NCBI RefSeq assembly: GCF_053078305.1
Contig: NZ_CP166875.1
Direction: 5' to 3' (one strand)
Source of the DNA: a plasmid
Length of the DNA stretch: 64,000 nucleotides
Numbering within the stretch: position 1 is the stretch's first letter; each line of letters begins with the position of its first letter. Made by a program: the position numbers and the translations under genes. Below, piece by piece: positions 57,265 through 63,748 of this stretch. The notes below the pieces were generated by a model that saw only the letters and a program-made list of their open reading frames with translations, made no database searches and was not told where the DNA came from.

Positions 57265-58848
57265 ATGTCTACCCGCAGCAATTTTCCAGCACGACATGGT
57301 ACTCCATGGAATACTGAAGAGTTACAGCGTCTTCTCGTATCCATAGCGGAGGGCGTCTCGCTAAAAAAACTTACTCAAACACATCAACGATCGTCCGGGG
57401 GAATACGTGGAGCAATCAAACGCCTGCTTCCTTCTGAGTTTCTTGAGTTCAACGATATAAACACGGTGAATGATCTCAGCAATTACTTCAACAAGATTCC
57501 TCGCCAAGAACACAATAGTATCATCAATAATTTAATATCATTGAGCACTGCAAAAACAATTGCTCATGATAAAGTTGAAATACAAAAGAATAGTTTTAAA
57601 CAAAATACCCCACTCCCCCTCTGCCAACCCAATACAGATTTTAAAGATTATATAGCCGATGAACATGATGTCATTATGCTAATTCATTCTGCTATCGAAA
57701 GTTTATCTAATAAACGACATCAATATATTCTTCTAATGCGACTCGGCACAGATGATTCACCTCATTCTCTGGCAGATATTGCCGTCAAATTAGGAATTTC
57801 CCGTGAAAGGGTAAGACAACTTCAGGAACGAGCCCTTGGCTTACTAGCTGCTAAATCTCGCTATGAAGGGACACCTGGAGCTTGCCTTAAAGCCCTTATT
57901 AACTCAATAGGTAATTCACCATATGATATAGCAGTATGGATTTATCGTATTGTTCATCGGGATTTCGTTACATCCTCTGACTTAGCCGCCAAATTCATTA
58001 TTTTTACCGCAGGCATTCCTAAAGCAAGACGAGATGAAATAAAAAGTTCGCTCTCATTAATATCACAATTACAAAAGCAGAGGTTACGTGAACGAAGAGC
58101 AGAATTAGCACACGCTCGCGCTCAGGAAAGAGCCCGAATCAAGAAAGAAAGAGTTGAGTTCATATTCAGTAAATGGCTAGACAATACACATTGGCCAAAA
58201 TATATCGCACCTCCTCCCCCCGTAGAACAGCTATGTTCACAGAGAGCGGTTAATGATACTGACATATCTGGATTCTTTTACTCTCAAAAATTAGGTCGTA
58301 CAGTCCAGTACGAATCAGGGCTTGAGTTTAAAATAATGAATCTATTAGAATGTTGCGATCAGGTTCTTTTCTATCAAGAACAACCATTTTCTATTCCATA
58401 TTGTTTTAAAAACAAATCAAAAAAATACTATCCAGATTTACTCATTGCGACAGTTGATGGTCGGTGCCTACTTATGGAAGTGAAGCCAACAGACCGAATG
58501 ACCTTGAGTCTCACGAGAATAAAAAGTAATGCAGGTCGCAAATGGGCACATACTCGAGGATGGGGATGGTTGGTCATTAGTGATAGGTTCTCGTTACGTC
58601 AGCTGGAAGAACATGCCATCTCAACAAACACATGGAAACTTATAGAGGCTGAACTGAAAACATCAAGGATTTTAGCATGGCGTGAAATGATGGAGTTACG
58701 TACACGATACGAGATTCATCGTTTAGATCTTATTGCATATATCATTCAGTCTGGTGCTGAAGTGGATAACTTTTATCGAATTACCCCGAAAATATCTAAT
58801 AATACATCTAACCAGAGACAACTAAATGAGAGCGACTGTCATAATTGA
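57265..58848 (+). CDS. multidomain protein: N-terminal HTH, sigma-70 region-4-like HTH, C-terminal PD-(D/E)xK nuclease-like domain
   Basis: 527 aa, AT-rich. Residues ~10-50 HTH-like (WNTEELQRLLVSIAEGVSLKKL); ~150-210 sigma region-4 pattern (HQYILLMRLGTDDSPHSLADIAVKLGISRERVRQLQERALGLL); C-terminus has E...PD-x13-E-x-K (GLEFKI...YYPDLLIATVDGRCLLMEVKP). Confidence 0.6.
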   Translation: MSTRSNFPARHGTPWNTEELQRLLVSIAEGVSLKKLTQTHQRSSGGIRGAIKRLLPSEFLEFNDINTVNDLSNYFNKIPRQEHNSIINNLISLSTAKTIAHDKVEIQKNSFKQNTPLPLCQPNTDFKDYIADEHDVIMLIHSAIESLSNKRHQYILLMRLGTDDSPHSLADIAVKLGISRERVRQLQERALGLLAAKSRYEGTPGACLKALINSIGNSPYDIAVWIYRIVHRDFVTSSDLAAKFIIFTAGIPKARRDEIKSSLSLISQLQKQRLRERRAELAHARAQERARIKKERVEFIFSKWLDNTHWPKYIAPPPPVEQLCSQRAVNDTDISGFFYSQKLGRTVQYESGLEFKIMNLLECCDQVLFYQEQPFSIPYCFKNKSKKYYPDLLIATVDGRCLLMEVKPTDRMTLSLTRIKSNAGRKWAHTRGWGWLVISDRFSLRQLEEHAISTNTWKLIEAELKTSRILAWREMMELRTRYEIHRLDLIAYIIQSGAEVDNFYRITPKISNNTSNQRQLNESDCHN

Positions 58849-59467
58849 TGACGCACAGGACGGAAAAAATAATAGCTGCCGGACAGCAGCAACCAGCAGT
58901 CGTCCGGTAAAAAAGACAAACAAGGCGCATTGAGGTCAGCCTTCGCAACAATCCGGCGGCAGATTCTCTACCGCCGTGTTGCCCGTTAACGTTTAACTTC
59001 GTAGGCTAACGTTGCCACAAGCACCGTATTTCCCTGCTCGATACGAAATCCGCAAAGCGAATCCCTCACCATCCAGACAAAACACAGTATCGTCACACAG
59101 ACGACGATTAACATCATTAAAAACGTTCGTTGTGGCATCGCAGCCCCTCCATTGCCTTTCGGCCGTCATCGGGCTACTATAATGTTGTTGAGGCATTACA
59201 GTGGGCCCTGGGTTGATTGATAAAAAAATCGCCTGGGGCTTTCTGCTACATGCCGTCCACAAAACGCTTTCGGCATACAGCCTCAAGCGCCCGCCGCTAT
59301 TCTAATCGTTTTCCAGTCCGCCACAATCCTTTTCATGCCACCACGTATTTTGTGTCAGGGACAGAAATAAAGCCGGAAAGTGACTACGTGTGCACACATC
59401 TGTTTTCCGGGCTGCAGGCATCGTGTTATTTTCTGAAATGCAAAATAATAAAAAACAAGGACACATC

Positions 59468-59710
59468 ATGAAGGATGAAATACACAGTACCAGCATTAAC
59501 CCGGATGTTGTTGAGCAGTTTCTGGCCCTTATGAACACACATTGTAAATCCTCAGAAGAGGCACTCGCCATGCTGAGTACGCTTTGTTACAACCTGATGA
59601 TGACATGCGGTATCCATTCCATGGACAGCCAGATGCTCAATGGGCATGGGATATCCATGCAACTTCAGGGGATTGATATTGCCGAAAGGCCAGGCAAGAA
59701 TATTCACTAA
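59468..59710 (+). CDS. small hypothetical protein
   Basis: 80 aa from ATG 59468 (AAGGA Shine-Dalgarno); first of four consecutive small same-strand ORFs. Confidence 0.3.
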   Translation: MKDEIHSTSINPDVVEQFLALMNTHCKSSEEALAMLSTLCYNLMMTCGIHSMDSQMLNGHGISMQLQGIDIAERPGKNIH

Positions 59711-60009
59711 CCTGAACAGGGTCTGAAAACGCTGATTTTTCAGCGTCTCTGCAGGCTAAAACTGATGATGTAATGACAACAAAATTTCTGCGTTTGTACC
59801 CCACCGATGAAAAAGACAAAAACTCACACCGGGCTTCTCATCATTAAAGATAAAACCCGACGTGTCAGCCTCTACGAAACGCCAACGGCATGGTGTATCA
59901 GGGGGCAGGAGTGCTACAGCAAAAGTACAGGACGCCGCTGTGGCAGCCACGACAGTCTGAGCAGACTGCGCCTGGACAGCATTAAGCCTGTTGAATGAGT
60001 GGTGGCACC

Positions 60010-60378
60010 ATGAAAGATAACAACACAACCTCCACCCCAGAAGCCTGGAAAATGCGTTTTCTGGCCAACGGGACATCCGGCACATGGTTTTACACTGACG
60101 ACATTGCAGTCACTGACGCGTGGCTTCGCGCGCACCCGGATGATGTGGAGGTTATCCCTCTCTGCCGGATACAGCCCCGCCAGCATTCCCATGAACAACA
60201 TATTGAAGAACTCCGCGCAGCCCTGGCCCGGATGCTCCATATGCATCATATGATGCTGGAAACCACACATTACCGGGAAAATATCACCGATGCCCGTTGT
60301 ATCCGTGAAATGCATGAAGCGCCATTACAGGCGCTCAATATTCTGTCCAGATACCCGCATAAAAAGGACGAGGTGTGA
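60010..60378 (+). CDS. small hypothetical protein
   Basis: 122 aa from ATG 60010 (GGTGG Shine-Dalgarno); His-rich (HMHHMMLETTH). Confidence 0.3.
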   Translation: MKDNNTTSTPEAWKMRFLANGTSGTWFYTDDIAVTDAWLRAHPDDVEVIPLCRIQPRQHSHEQHIEELRAALARMLHMHHMMLETTHYRENITDARCIREMHEAPLQALNILSRYPHKKDEV

Positions 60379-60381
60379 CGC

Positions 60382-60597
60382 ATGTGGCTACTGATTTTCT
60401 GGCTTTCATCGCCCTTTAATGTCTCTTCCGGTGATGCCCGTCAGCCCACACTGGCGGTGCACAGCCAGGCCTTTCATACCGAACGGGCCTGCCGCGATGC
60501 ATTGCGCGCCATTAAAAAGGAGAATGTTGGCGAATTTTCTCTGCGGGGCGTTTGTGTTTCTGACGGAAATACGAAGGAGGAGGCTGAGAGCTCATGA
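60382..60597 (+). CDS. small hypothetical protein with N-terminal hydrophobic segment
   Basis: 71 aa; begins 4 nt after the previous stop; MWLLIFWLSSPF hydrophobic N-terminus. Confidence 0.3.
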   Translation: MWLLIFWLSSPFNVSSGDARQPTLAVHSQAFHTERACRDALRAIKKENVGEFSLRGVCVSDGNTKEEAESS

Positions 60598-60845
60598 CGG
60601 ATATTACTGACAGACATACACTTCGCCGTATGTCCTGGTCGGAACTCATCACGGCAGGACAGGAAGCAGAATTTCAGCATGATTACGAGCGTGCCAGAAT
60701 AGTGTGGTCATTCGCCTTACATGTTGCAACAACCACGATTAACAAAAATCTGGCCATAGCTCATATTCGACGCTGCGATACTTTGTTGCATAAATCAAAG
60801 GCTGTACCCGGAAACAACCCGTGTGGTTCCGGTCAGCGAGTCTGA
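60594..60845 (+). CDS. small hypothetical protein
   Basis: 83 aa; ATGA overlap with the previous gene. Confidence 0.3.
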   Translation: MTDITDRHTLRRMSWSELITAGQEAEFQHDYERARIVWSFALHVATTTINKNLAIAHIRRCDTLLHKSKAVPGNNPCGSGQRV

Positions 60846-61475
60846 GACCTCAACATCCCGGGTGATGATTGTCATTCCGGACTGACGCAGCCGCTGCACA
60901 TCTGCGGCAATACGTTGAATACCAAGCCAGAACAGACCATCCAGCGCGGTGACAATTAACCCGCTTTCCAGCGCCAGTTTCAGCCGTGCTGTCGGGGCTT
61001 TAACCTGCCCGGCTATATCAGTGAAACAACGCGTCGTCATGCCATAGCTGTCCGCCCGCCGTATTCGCGTCGCAAGACTGTAACTGAAGCTATCCGGCAC
61101 GCCGGATAAGTCATTCTGCAGACTGTATACACATCCCCGCTGCCGCTCATTGAATACAACTTTTTTCTGGCTGAGCTGCCATTCCCGCCGCACGCTGTCA
61201 ATCATCTGCGGTGTCCGGGTTAACAGCAGACGAAACGGCAGTTCAAAACTGGTCACATAATCAACATTAAGTAAGGCAATCCGCAGCCGCTCCCTGGCTC
61301 CTGCTCCGGTATCACGGCATTCACGCATGACATCTTCCCACTGGCGCATCAGTCGCGGTGACTCATTCCTGGCCCTGAACTGATATTTCTCAATCTGATA
61401 ATCAATATGTTCCTGCATACCGTCACCGGATATCTGTTGCCGTATCATCACGGATATCAGCGTACTGGAATTCAT
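60795..61475 (-). CDS. hypothetical protein
   Basis: 226-aa ORF convergent with the small-gene array; no recognisable motif. Confidence 0.35.
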   Translation of the reverse strand: MNSSTLISVMIRQQISGDGMQEHIDYQIEKYQFRARNESPRLMRQWEDVMRECRDTGAGARERLRIALLNVDYVTSFELPFRLLLTRTPQMIDSVRREWQLSQKKVVFNERQRGCVYSLQNDLSGVPDSFSYSLATRIRRADSYGMTTRCFTDIAGQVKAPTARLKLALESGLIVTALDGLFWLGIQRIAADVQRLRQSGMTIITRDVEVSDSLTGTTRVVSGYSL

Positions 61476-61577
61476 GCCCTGCGTGAAGTATCACACTGCC
61501 AAAAAAAACACACCTGAACGTTATTATTTCGCAATATTAATTGCACCTGTTTTCATAAATAAAAAGGAGACGATGAA

Positions 61578-62045
61578 ATGATAAAATATATCTTTTCACT
61601 CACCATTATTTTTTCCGCTTCTCTCTGTGCTGCACAGATTCAGGGGCACGTCATCCGCGTTCTTGATGGTGATACGCTGGAAATATTACAGGACAAAAAG
61701 CCTGTCAGGGTCCGTCTGGCTAATATTGATGCACCGGAAAAGAAACAGCCCTTTGGACGCTGGTCAGCCACTCAGCTGAAGGACCTGGTGGCCGGAAAGC
61801 CCGTAACCGTGCAATACGCGCAGACAGACAGGTATGGCCGTATTCTCGGCCGGGTCTATACCGCTGACGGCACAGAAGCAAATCGCTGGCAGGTCCGTAA
61901 CGGCGCTGCCTGGGTGTACCCGGACTACAATAATGACTATACTCTCCCGCCGCTCCAGCGTGATGCCCGCGCCCTGAAGCGGGGATTATGGGCAGATAAA
62001 AATCCGGTACCACCATGGACCTGGAGAAAACAGAATAAGAAATAA
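61578..62045 (+). CDS. nuc: secreted staphylococcal-nuclease-like (SNase) endonuclease
   Basis: 155 aa; signal peptide, then SNase pattern ...VIRVLDGDTLEI...VRVRLANIDAPE...YGRILGRVY... Confidence 0.75.
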   Translation: MIKYIFSLTIIFSASLCAAQIQGHVIRVLDGDTLEILQDKKPVRVRLANIDAPEKKQPFGRWSATQLKDLVAGKPVTVQYAQTDRYGRILGRVYTADGTEANRWQVRNGAAWVYPDYNNDYTLPPLQRDARALKRGLWADKNPVPPWTWRKQNKK

Positions 62046-62195: not shown

Positions 62196-62372
62196 ATGAA
62201 CCTGGTTGATGCATTTGTCACTAAAGTGATATCCGGACCGTATGAAGAATACGGAAAATGGTGGGTGGATGTAGAATATATTTCCTGGGGAGTTCCGGGT
62301 AAAAGCCGGCTCATGTTTGACTCACGGGAACAGGCACAGGAAGTGCAGGAAGGTTTTCGATTTTTAACCTGA
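62196..62372 (+). CDS. small hydrophilic protein (58 aa), part of repeated module
   Basis: ATG 62196 with AAAGGTG Shine-Dalgarno; MNLVDAFVTKVISGPYEEYGKWWVDVEYISWGVPGKSRLMFDSREQAQEVQEGFRFLT; followed by hairpin GGGCAGAAGGCGGTGACCCTCTGCCC; a truncated paralog lies at 62958-63062. Confidence 0.3.
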   Translation: MNLVDAFVTKVISGPYEEYGKWWVDVEYISWGVPGKSRLMFDSREQAQEVQEGFRFLT

Positions 62373-62434
62373 GCATATTTTGTTAAAGGGCAGAAGGCGG
62401 TGACCCTCTGCCCTTAAGTACGTTTCCGGGATTA

Positions 62435-62530
62435 TCAGTCAACCAGTTCCCGGATCAGTTCCAGGAGAGCTATCACTGCGTTAGCCACAGCAACAACCGC
62501 CCTGAGAACGATGATTAACAGGTTAATCAT
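62435..62530 (-). CDS. 31-aa hydrophobic peptide, type I toxin-like (TisB/ZorO-like), copy 1
   Basis: Reverse-strand ATG (62528-62530) preceded by GGAG Shine-Dalgarno; MINLLIIVLRAVVAVANAVIALLELIRELVD; near-identical copy at 63119-63214. Confidence 0.45.
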   Translation of the reverse strand: MINLLIIVLRAVVAVANAVIALLELIRELVD

Positions 62531-62755
62531 CCGCTTCTCCATCAATGGAGAAAGAACACCGTGGTTTGCCCTTACATTGCCTGTCGCCACGTTTTCTATA
62601 GTGTCAGTTATAGACAGTTCTTCTCCGGCCAGAGCACCAAAACCAGCACCACCTGATGTTTTGGCCAGGACTTGCAACCTGTTCATCCCGGTGAACGATA
62701 TGCCGGAAAGAACGTGCCTCAAAGCTGACACACCGAGTATATACTTATACTGTGC

Positions 62756-62784: not shown

Positions 62785-62957
62785 TTCATAGTCAGTTATA
62801 GGCAGTTATCTTCCGGTCAGGGCTACCAACTTCGATCCGGAATCGCAAAAAAACCGGCCTCACCAGTCGGTTTTTTTGCGTCTGTACCTCCTCCCCGGAC
62901 AGCAGTTCTCTCACTCCCGTTGAATATTTCCTGTTGAATTTTACGAAAATACGGCAA

Positions 62958-63062
62958 ATGGGAGATATCGAATATATTTCCTTGGGTGTAGTCGGTAAAA
63001 ACCAGCTCATGTTTGACTCACAGAAACAGGCTCTGGAAGTACAGAAAGTAATCTGTCCGTAG
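62958..63062 (+). CDS. truncated paralog of the 58-aa small protein (34 aa)
   Basis: MGDIEYISLGVVGKNQLMFDSQKQALEVQKVICP, similar to residues 25-55 of the 62196 ORF; weak RBS, possibly degenerate. Confidence 0.2.
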   Translation: MGDIEYISLGVVGKNQLMFDSQKQALEVQKVICP

Positions 63063-63118
63063 ATTATTAAAGGGCAGAGGGCGGTGACCCTCTGCCCTTA
63101 AGTACGTTTCCGGGATTA

Positions 63119-63214
63119 TCAGTCAACCAGTTCCCGGATCAGTTCCAGGAGAGCTATCACTGCGTTAGCCACAGCAACAACCGCCCTGAGAACGATGATT
63201 AACAGGTTAATCAT
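63119..63214 (-). CDS. 31-aa hydrophobic peptide, type I toxin-like, copy 2
   Basis: Same peptide as 62435-62530 (MINLLIIVLRAVVAVANAVIALLELIRELVD); flanking about 150 bp also duplicated. Confidence 0.45.
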   Translation of the reverse strand: MINLLIIVLRAVVAVANAVIALLELIRELVD

Positions 63215-63748
63215 CCGTTTCTCCATCAATGGAGGAAATCACTGTTGTTTACTCTTACATTGCCTGTCACAACAGCTCTTTCATTGTTAGCTGAAAAGAG
63301 ACTTCCTCCGGCCAGAGCACCAGACGCAGCACCACCTGTTTGTCCGGCCAGGTCTTTGAATAGCACAGATCCATAGTCCCGATGGATTGATGCGAAGGTA
63401 AGTCTCCAGACAAGGCTAACTTGCTGATTATACTTGTTTCAGGCGATATCGCTACTCCCGGAACAATAGACTGTAACGAACAGATTGCGATCAGGTGAAT
63501 ATAACGATATTCTGGTAACGTTAGTTGAAAAGAGACTTCCCCCGGGCCAGAGCCACCCACTCTCCCTGGGATCGCAAAAAAGCCGGCCTCACCAGTCGGC
63601 TTTTTTGTGCCTGTCTCTCACCACCTTCTGCTGTTCCTGTGAAAATGCCCTGCTGAATTCAGCCCTGCCCGGTCATTACCGGCGATTGTTCGCATTAATT
63701 CCACTCAGCCTCATCCCGAAATTTATCTATTTATCGATGGAGGAATCC

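Follow-up and report, generated by a model that had tools for sequence, protein, structure and literature searches.

The ANR (AraC negative regulator) family, with Aar of enteroaggregative Escherichia coli (EAEC) 042, Cnr of enterotoxigenic E. coli (ETEC) and Rnr of Citrobacter rodentium, comprises small, all-helical anti-activators of less than 10 kDa with three helices that bind AraC-family proteins and/or H-NS. They occur together with a cognate AraC/XylS virulence regulator, by which they are activated. Their consensus signature consists of the seven residues A10, E14, A22, W26, A29, W43 and R47 (PMC4983702). Short overlapping strings of same-strand open reading frames (ORFs) of 60-120 amino acids (aa) are found among the ea, exo-xis and nin accessory genes of temperate phages. 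Here we compare with these systems, and with the ECs1377 family, a gene array at positions 59,468-61,475 of a 64-kb stretch of DNA (64,000 nucleotides, in the following the window) that is a pCT-like IncK resistance plasmid. The array consists of small forward-strand genes, ORF1 to ORF5, and the reverse-strand gene ORF6, which lies next to the nuclease gene nuc. We find it to be a real, common, conserved and partly annotatable accessory module, for whose action a mechanism is proposed.

Architecture, coding signal and distribution of the array

The array falls into three separable pieces, i.e. ORF1 with the hok/sok locus, the cassette ORF2-ORF3-ORF4-ORF5 and the divergent pair ORF6-nuc. An analysis of the sequence made before ours, in the following the original prediction, had described four same-strand ORFs forming an operon-like coupled unit and converging on a reverse-strand gene of 226 aa. 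Its coordinates and quoted junctions are correct according to the ORF listing and the sequence, and all four ORFs stand, but their true number is five, a 63-aa ORF at 59807-59998 having been overlooked. The operon-like unit was borne out for ORF2-5 (63/122/71/83 aa), which are conserved as a block in several contexts, but not for ORF1 (80 aa, 59468..59710, forward strand). We place ORF1 outside the coupled unit because a gap of 96 nt separates it from ORF2 and because it stays by hok while ORF2-5 sit elsewhere in related plasmids.

Within the cassette the coupling junctions read ATGA / 3 nt / ATGA. The stop codon of ORF2 overlaps an upstream ATG of ORF3 (59995) as ATGA at 59995-59998, 11 nt before the ORF3 start at 60010, a gap of 3 nt lies between the end of ORF3 at 60378 and the start of ORF4 at 60382, and ORF4 and ORF5 are joined by the ATGA at 60594-60597. 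ORF5 converges with the reverse ORF6 in a 51-nt overlap. Shine-Dalgarno (SD)-like motifs precede ORF1 (AAGGA, 8 nt upstream, a good match), ORF3 (GGTGG), ORF4 (GAGGTG) and ORF5 (AAGGAGG, strong). A hairpin following ORF1 (59729-59746) was considered as a terminator and rejected, as it lacks a T-run and its sequence is not preserved in the copy of E. coli sequence type 131 (ST131).

We calculated the ratio of nonsynonymous to synonymous substitution rates (dN/dS) by the Nei-Gojobori method for each ORF against divergent copies of 54-88% identity. The values are 0.17-0.18 for ORF1 (against copies 71% identical), 0.07-0.13 for ORF2, 0.12-0.18 for ORF3, 0.05-0.08 for ORF4, ~0.15 for ORF5 and 0.08-0.16 for ORF6, with 0.12 for nuc. 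Changes are concentrated at the third codon positions in every ORF, and the synonymous divergence is near saturation (dS 1.2-2.4). Judged by these substitution patterns, all six ORFs are genuine protein-coding genes under long-term purifying selection. The claim that the ORFs are real genes is thus upheld by conservation and a dN/dS of 0.05-0.18, in place of the missing conservation and coding signal to be expected of spurious ORFs.

The 2.3-kb region has matches in 496 PLSDB plasmids, nearly all of E. coli or Shigella; 480 of these plasmids are conjugative, and in 356 the match covers at least 80% of the length. Of 5426 complete E. coli genomes, 1142 have the array as present in the window; 810 of the places matched are chromosomal, the copies lying beside iha/sat. 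The ST131 chromosome carries ORF1-5 and a truncated ORF6 remnant, with iha on one side and, on the other, insertion sequence (IS) remnants that lead to sat. With ORF3 and ORF5 as queries a second, divergent lineage of the cassette came to light, with protein identities of ~72% (ORF2'), 59-70% (ORF3'), ~85% (ORF4') and ~56% (ORF5'). This paralogous cassette is present in 651 of the 5426 E. coli genomes, mostly on plasmids of Shiga toxin-producing E. coli (STEC) and other virulence plasmids, next to toxins of the serine protease autotransporters of Enterobacteriaceae (SPATE). Its genes ORF2'-5' start ~300-500 bp downstream of SPATE (Peptidase_S6) genes, on plasmids as well as on chromosomes (loci L014, L015, L019-L022, L024).

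The original prediction had proposed to examine the synteny of the array, and we found the order ORF2-3-4-5 identical in every variant locus. Order and coupling are kept on plasmids with differing neighbours. In other IncB/O/K/Z-type plasmids the second lineage lies after nuc, in the order hok, ORF1', phosphoethanolamine transferase gene, DUF2569 gene, ORF6', nuc', ORF2'-5', dqlB and trbA (L011), and in STEC plasmids (L014, L024) a SPATE autotransporter gene is inserted between nuc' and ORF2'. ORF1 stays beside hok in L011 and L024 while ORF2'-5' lie after nuc, and it is located beside hok/sok in every plasmid variant seen. On islands (L015, L019-22) the cassette is found as a travelling companion of the SPATE gene, which in one case (L015) has a gene of the AraC family upstream of it. 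The DNA upstream of ORF2 is unrelated between the two cassette lineages, which places the module boundary at the ORF2 start. ORF2-5 are exchanged as one unit between plasmids and pathogenicity islands, and for the link of the cassette with SPATE genes and iha the best explanation is that IS-mediated moves took plasmid backbone DNA along.

Two further observations concern these related plasmids. A 511-aa EptA-like phosphoethanolamine transferase gene and the DUF2569 gene fill the slot between ORF1' and ORF6' (L011, 3822-6012; L024, 777-2967) in IncB/O/K/Z-type plasmids that include one of STEC O111:H8, the slot being the one in which the window has ORF2-5. Plasmids of the pO157 type retain just the first 50-275 bp of the SPATE 3' flank, and this flank could mark how espP-like genes left the IncI-complex backbone.

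ORF5 as a remote homolog of the ANR/Aar anti-activators

ORF5 (83 aa, 60594..60845, forward strand) contains a divergent ANR/Aar-like core in residues ~15-61. With the NCBIfam model ANR_neg_reg (NF033650) ORF5 reaches 20.6 bits (E 3e-4) and its paralogs 28.3 and 28.2 bits (E 1e-6), the matches spanning model positions 4-52 of 54. For a profile comparison we combined Aar, encoded on plasmid pAA of EAEC 042, with nine proteins named ANR by the Prokaryotic Genome Annotation Pipeline (PGAP) from E. coli, Yersinia, Vibrio and Salmonella plasmids. Alignment of 17 ORF5-family sequences with these ten ANR proteins by hhalign gave a probability of 94% (E 1.5e-7) over 54 colinear columns. The comparison with Aar alone was weak (probability 17%), the significance coming with the ten-sequence profile.

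Like the ANR proteins, ORF5 is small (83 aa), but its paralogs of 103-107 aa are larger. With these proteins it aligns without gaps and colinearly over ~47-54 residues. In the predicted helices 1-2 it has the aromatic, A, E, D, A, W and A positions in common with them; it further has five of the seven signature residues (G/A22, E26, A34, W38 and A41 in ORF5 numbering) and carries a C-terminal Cys, present as F-C in the paralogs. ANR genes, too, occur on plasmids and in varied contexts. In contrast to the solitary ANR gene, ORF5 closes a coupled cassette of four genes, and its paralogs bear an extra basic tail of ~40 aa. Taken together, the profile comparisons indicate remote homology of ORF5 to the ANR/Aar anti-activators, short of a certified membership in the family. 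Instead of the basic tail (…HHHLYEKKKTKEG) found in the 103-107-aa paralogs, ORF5 ends in ~20 aa whose coding sequence runs antisense to the 3' end of ORF6; the convergent overlap is thus a rearrangement junction.

Two names attached to ORF5 homologs, 'flagellar biosynthesis protein FlgM' and 'neurotensin receptor R8', were rejected, as no family match stands behind them. The literature on 'neurotensin receptor R8' and on ECs1377 yielded incidental mentions alone.

The proteins encoded by ORF1 to ORF4

The original prediction stated that none of the genes carries a recognisable motif, which is no longer tenable given the PHROG family membership of ORF2 and ORF4, the remote homology of ORF5 to ANR/Aar in profile comparison and the winged-helix protein encoded by the reverse gene. 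ORF2 (63 aa, 59807..59998, forward strand; PGAP WP_000751583.1), the first gene of the four-gene cassette, matches phrog_1226 over positions 1-63 of the 67 of the profile (E 7.1e-17), and tblastn showed that E. coli phage Flotzy and Yersinia phage vB_YpM_39 encode homologs of 51-53% identity in their early regions. An assignment of ORF2 to DUF4222, a gene of which adjoins an ECs1377 homolog in an E. coli island (L004), was ruled out, as there is no similarity. ORF4 (71 aa, 60382..60597, forward strand), the most conserved of the set, matches phrog_3766 over profile positions 2-64 of 66 (E 2.5e-11). By tblastn, a homolog of 41% identity came up in Klebsiella phage 2b LV-2017, where it is an ORF without annotation in the nin region, flanked by 'EaD' and 'Eaa'.

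ORF3 (60010..60378, forward strand) encodes 122 aa, or 127 aa from the alternative start at 59995. A word-based search finds ORF3 in E. coli alone, which is also the only species with its N-terminal half. The last ~50 aa constitute a widespread unnamed helical domain with 70 matches in an exhaustive profile search and the motif L.AAL.RML.MH.LMM.K.NHgaSFYDAeCIREMNEAPlQA. This domain occupies the C-termini of proteins of 60-220 aa, some of them with PHROG N-termini; ten of the remote relatives gave no named family in NCBIfam or PHROG scans. ORF3 has no Pfam, NCBIfam or PDB match, and its AlphaFold 2 (AF2) model, made from an alignment of five sequences, is unusable with a predicted local distance difference test score (pLDDT) of 47. 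The label 'P-loop NTPase' of the ORF3 homolog WP_029391948.1 was rejected, as there is neither a Walker motif nor a family match.

ORF1 gave no match in Pfam, NCBIfam, PHROG, PADLOC or PDB. Across all six ORFs, Pfam returned HTH_39 on ORF6 alone and PADLOC returned nothing, and searches of PDB with the ORF1, ORF2 and ORF4 sequences and with profiles of ORF3, ORF5 and ORF6 yielded nothing meaningful. In RefSeq, ORF1-4 and the reverse gene on identical plasmids are labelled hypothetical or 'helix-turn-helix' proteins.

The cassette thus resembles the ea, exo-xis and nin accessory genes of temperate phages in the membership of ORF2 and ORF4 in PHROG 1226 and 3766, in the ORF3 C-terminal domain, which recurs at the ends of phage-type proteins, and in its short, overlapping, same-strand arrangement. 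Unlike these genes, it is located not in a phage but on a conjugative plasmid and on pathogenicity islands, and none of the three phage loci used for comparison (L017, L018, L025) has its four genes together.

ORF6, nuc and their shared intergenic region

The reverse gene converging on the array was described in the original prediction as unannotatable and 226 aa long. The ORF of this length exists (60795-61475), but its start is most likely M20 at 61418, as homologs of other genera start there and the DNA similarity to related plasmids is lost upstream; this predicts a protein of 207 aa (ORF6, 60795..61418, reverse strand). ORF6, which converges on ORF5 and diverges from nuc, can be annotated: it is a full-length member of the ECs1377 family, matching NCBIfam NF052300 with 299.6 bits (cut-off 190) over profile positions 2-190 of 190, and contains a Pfam HTH_39 domain in residues 165-226 (E 2.8e-5). 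Its AF2 model shows two tandem winged-helix domains (pLDDT 91.8); the structural matches are generic winged-helix folds, and the fold agrees with that of relatives in the AlphaFold Protein Structure Database.

We found 686 ORF6 homologs across the Enterobacterales, most of them chromosomal proteins of ~65% identity from Citrobacter, Kosakonia, Enterobacter, Rahnella and Serratia, and one of them in an Erwinia phage. A CP4-like island of E. coli (L004, 7473-11197) has an ECs1377 homolog beside Hha, two DUF7828/Zn-ribbon genes and a DUF4222 gene, and in Kosakonia (L008-L010, 10001-10648) a homolog is located directly upstream of a complete type VI secretion system (T6SS) cluster. These positions by Hha and T6SS genes suggest that ECs1377 proteins may be island-borne transcription regulators. 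The divergent pairing with a thermonuclease gene sets ORF6 apart within the family, being seen on the examined IncK/B/O/Z-type plasmids alone; it is retained in the window and in L011, L014 and L024.

The constant divergent partner, nuc (61578..62045, forward strand), belongs to the thermonuclease family and is pCT_057, the 'parB-like nuclease' of pCT. A pCT plasmid with inactivated pCT_057 was out-competed by wild-type pCT, while no defect in growth or stability was detected (PMC4083329). The 159 bp between the two genes (61419..61577) contain a conserved AT-rich AATATTAA block at 61533-61540, inside GCAATATTAATTGC, its conservation being derived from an alignment of four plasmid variants. 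A sigma-70 consensus scan of 61419-61577 returned no promoter. We propose the region to be the putative operator and promoter region of ORF6.

Source plasmid and surroundings

The assignment to pCT is based on published recombineering primers, of which those for pCT_066 and pndACB (pCT_065) match exactly at 57348-57387 and 59198-59237 in a primer search of the window; the primer for the pCT parB gene (pCT_057), printed in PMC4083329, was recognised by eye inside the nuc sequence. As the pCT primers flank the array, the array corresponds to the unnamed pCT genes between pndACB and pCT_057. The local gene order is traY, excA, a 527-aa gene, hok/sok, the array, nuc, DinQ-like type I toxin genes, trbABC and relaxase gene, and the array hence sits in the excA-trbA cargo hot-spot of a pCT-like IncK plasmid. 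The array is located between excA and trbABC-nikB, on the trbABC/nikB side of oriT; judged from IncI1 R64, this side would not be the leading region but the last to enter the recipient.

The array does lie between the nuclease-domain gene and nuc, as originally described, but the hok/sok locus (58986-59292) is also in that interval. The hok/pndA toxin gene with its sok antitoxin RNA is encoded on the reverse strand directly upstream of ORF1, with a full-length Rfam match to sok (124.7 bits) at 59136-59292. No Rfam match was found inside 59468-61475; downstream of the array there are two AgrB antisense RNAs at 62792-62879 (47.7 bits) and 63521-63608 (38.5 bits). The stretches 62268-62673 and 62964-63356 belong to an imperfect tandem duplication of ~684 bp with 72-95% identity, each copy of which contains a p58-like small ORF (62196-62372; degraded copy 62934-63062), a DinQ-like type I toxin gene (RefSeq dqlB) and an AgrB antisense RNA.

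The 527-aa 'nuclease-domain protein' (57265-58848, forward strand) is, by the exact primer match, pCT_066, the 'unusual putative sigma-70 factor' of pCT. It contains a sigma-70 region-4-like helix-turn-helix in residues ~130-200 and, in residues ~330-440, an endonuclease domain of the TnsA-like kind. The pCT_066 knock-out had no phenotype (PMC4083329). The gene is missing from otherwise identical plasmids, e.g. at locus L001.

Discussion

Our data lead us to favour, tentatively and somewhat short of calling it probable, a model according to which the array is a phage-derived regulatory or host-modulating cargo module, and not a defence, anti-defence or toxin-antitoxin system. According to this model ORF5, having no DNA-binding domain of its own, would bind another transcription regulator as ANR proteins do, the partner being either an activator of the AraC/XylS type or H-NS/Hha, and this binding would damp or re-tune the expression of host, plasmid or island genes. 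ORF2-4 would be co-translated partners of ORF5 or further small host-modulating proteins, as in the ea/nin regions of phages, and ORF6 would bind the 159-bp region that it shares with nuc, thereby controlling itself and nuc.

Several points weigh against this model. The role of ORF2-4 as partners is purely conjectural, ORF1-4 having no functional annotation, and ORF5 and its paralogs score below the curated NF033650 cut-off of 32 bits. Of the ANR signature residues, W43 is replaced by an invariant Leu in the ORF5 family and R47 by His in ORF5 or Lys in the paralogs, whereas this helix-3 Trp/Arg pair (W45 and R49 in Aar numbering) is invariant in the ten-sequence ANR alignment. Mutation of W45 abolishes the activity of Aar (PMC4983702). 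No AraC/XylS gene was returned when the 64-kb window was searched by tblastn, at limited sensitivity, with AggR and the AraC-family protein of L015, so that ORF5 differs from ANR proteins also in having no cognate activator found nearby. ORF2 in the window copy has no visible SD motif, and a promoter/terminator consensus scan of the array gave nothing above chance. The functional-genomics study of pCT neither inactivated nor discussed the array ORFs (PMC4083329). Finally, the cadBA-linked SPATE island (L019-22) has a truncated ORF2 and a frameshift in ORF4, and deletions that fuse ORF3 to ORF5 occur among database entries; the decayed chromosomal copies and the fusion deletions show that the cassette is dispensable in some settings.

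The same decay speaks for viewing the cassette as a hitchhiking remnant of the backbone, functional in an ancestral phage or plasmid, useless in its present place and spread by IS together with iha, sat, espP and other SPATE genes. The IS remnants flanking the cassette in islands, the loss of the native C-terminal tail of ORF5 at the ORF6 junction and the knock-outs of neighbouring pCT genes without phenotype (PMC4083329) point in the same direction. We nevertheless consider this explanation somewhat unlikely, as the low dN/dS in the face of near-saturated synonymous sites across two lineages shows long-term purifying selection on every ORF, and as the order and coupling of the cassette persist among different plasmid neighbours. 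Hitchhiking accounts for the chromosomal spread and decay but not for the long-term purifying selection.

Many small phage early proteins inhibit defences, and early-left and nin regions often hold anti-defence genes. The original prediction had accordingly offered an establishment or anti-defence set as one interpretation, in which some or all of ORF1-5 would inhibit restriction, CRISPR or other defences of the recipient. The homologs of ORF2 and ORF4 in early-left and nin accessory regions of temperate phages agree with it, as do the small, acidic or helical, unannotated but selected proteins of ORF1-5 and a cargo hot-spot rich in nucleases and toxins. We regard it as unlikely: there is no PADLOC match, no array ORF matches ArdA, KlcA, PsiB, Ssb-type or other known anti-restriction, SOS-inhibition or anti-defence families in NCBIfam or Pfam, and the locus between excA and trbABC-nikB is expected, from the IncI1 analogy, on the last-entering side. 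Moreover, the cassette is kept in chromosomal islands and beside SPATE genes, where conjugative entry is irrelevant, and ORF5, the sole gene of the cassette with an interpretable homology, points to transcription control. ORF1-4 individually may nevertheless have an anti-defence role. The other interpretation offered originally, a multi-component system of unknown type, finds no support and no PADLOC match. In its specific form, in which ORF2-5 with ORF6 as the regulator constitute a defence or toxin-antitoxin system, we consider it highly improbable. It would fit the tight operon of small genes beside a regulator of the winged-helix type and the presence of hok/sok and DinQ-like type I toxins in the region; however, PADLOC for ORF1-6 and Rfam within the array were both negative, ORF1-5 contain no enzymatic, NTPase, nuclease or membrane-toxin domain, and ORF6 and the cassette are not adjacent in related plasmids and thus form no obligate unit.

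A bolder version of the regulatory model takes ORF2-5 as a regulatory companion of mobile E. coli virulence genes and as a new, multi-protein branch of the ANR anti-activators, which we judge to be quite unlikely, even slightly more so than an anti-defence role. ORF5 together with ORF2-4 would then tune the SPATE and iha/sat genes or, alternatively, would either lift or establish the silencing of newly acquired DNA by H-NS/Hha. The loss of the helix-3 Trp/Arg would make a different binding partner probable in that case.

As a summary, we provide for the array, a proposed phage-derived regulatory cargo module, a set of family assignments of which those of ORF5 and ORF6 correct misleading annotation. 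The cassette is common, including its presence in ST131 beside iha/sat, yet every gene is 'hypothetical' or misnamed ('FlgM', 'neurotensin receptor R8', 'P-loop NTPase'). The novelty is modest, consisting mainly in a divergent branch of ANR-like proteins that is part of a cassette of four genes and not in a new kind of system. The divergent ANR-like ORF5 and the tandem winged-helix protein ORF6 offer a handle on how resistance and virulence plasmids modulate the gene expression of their hosts.

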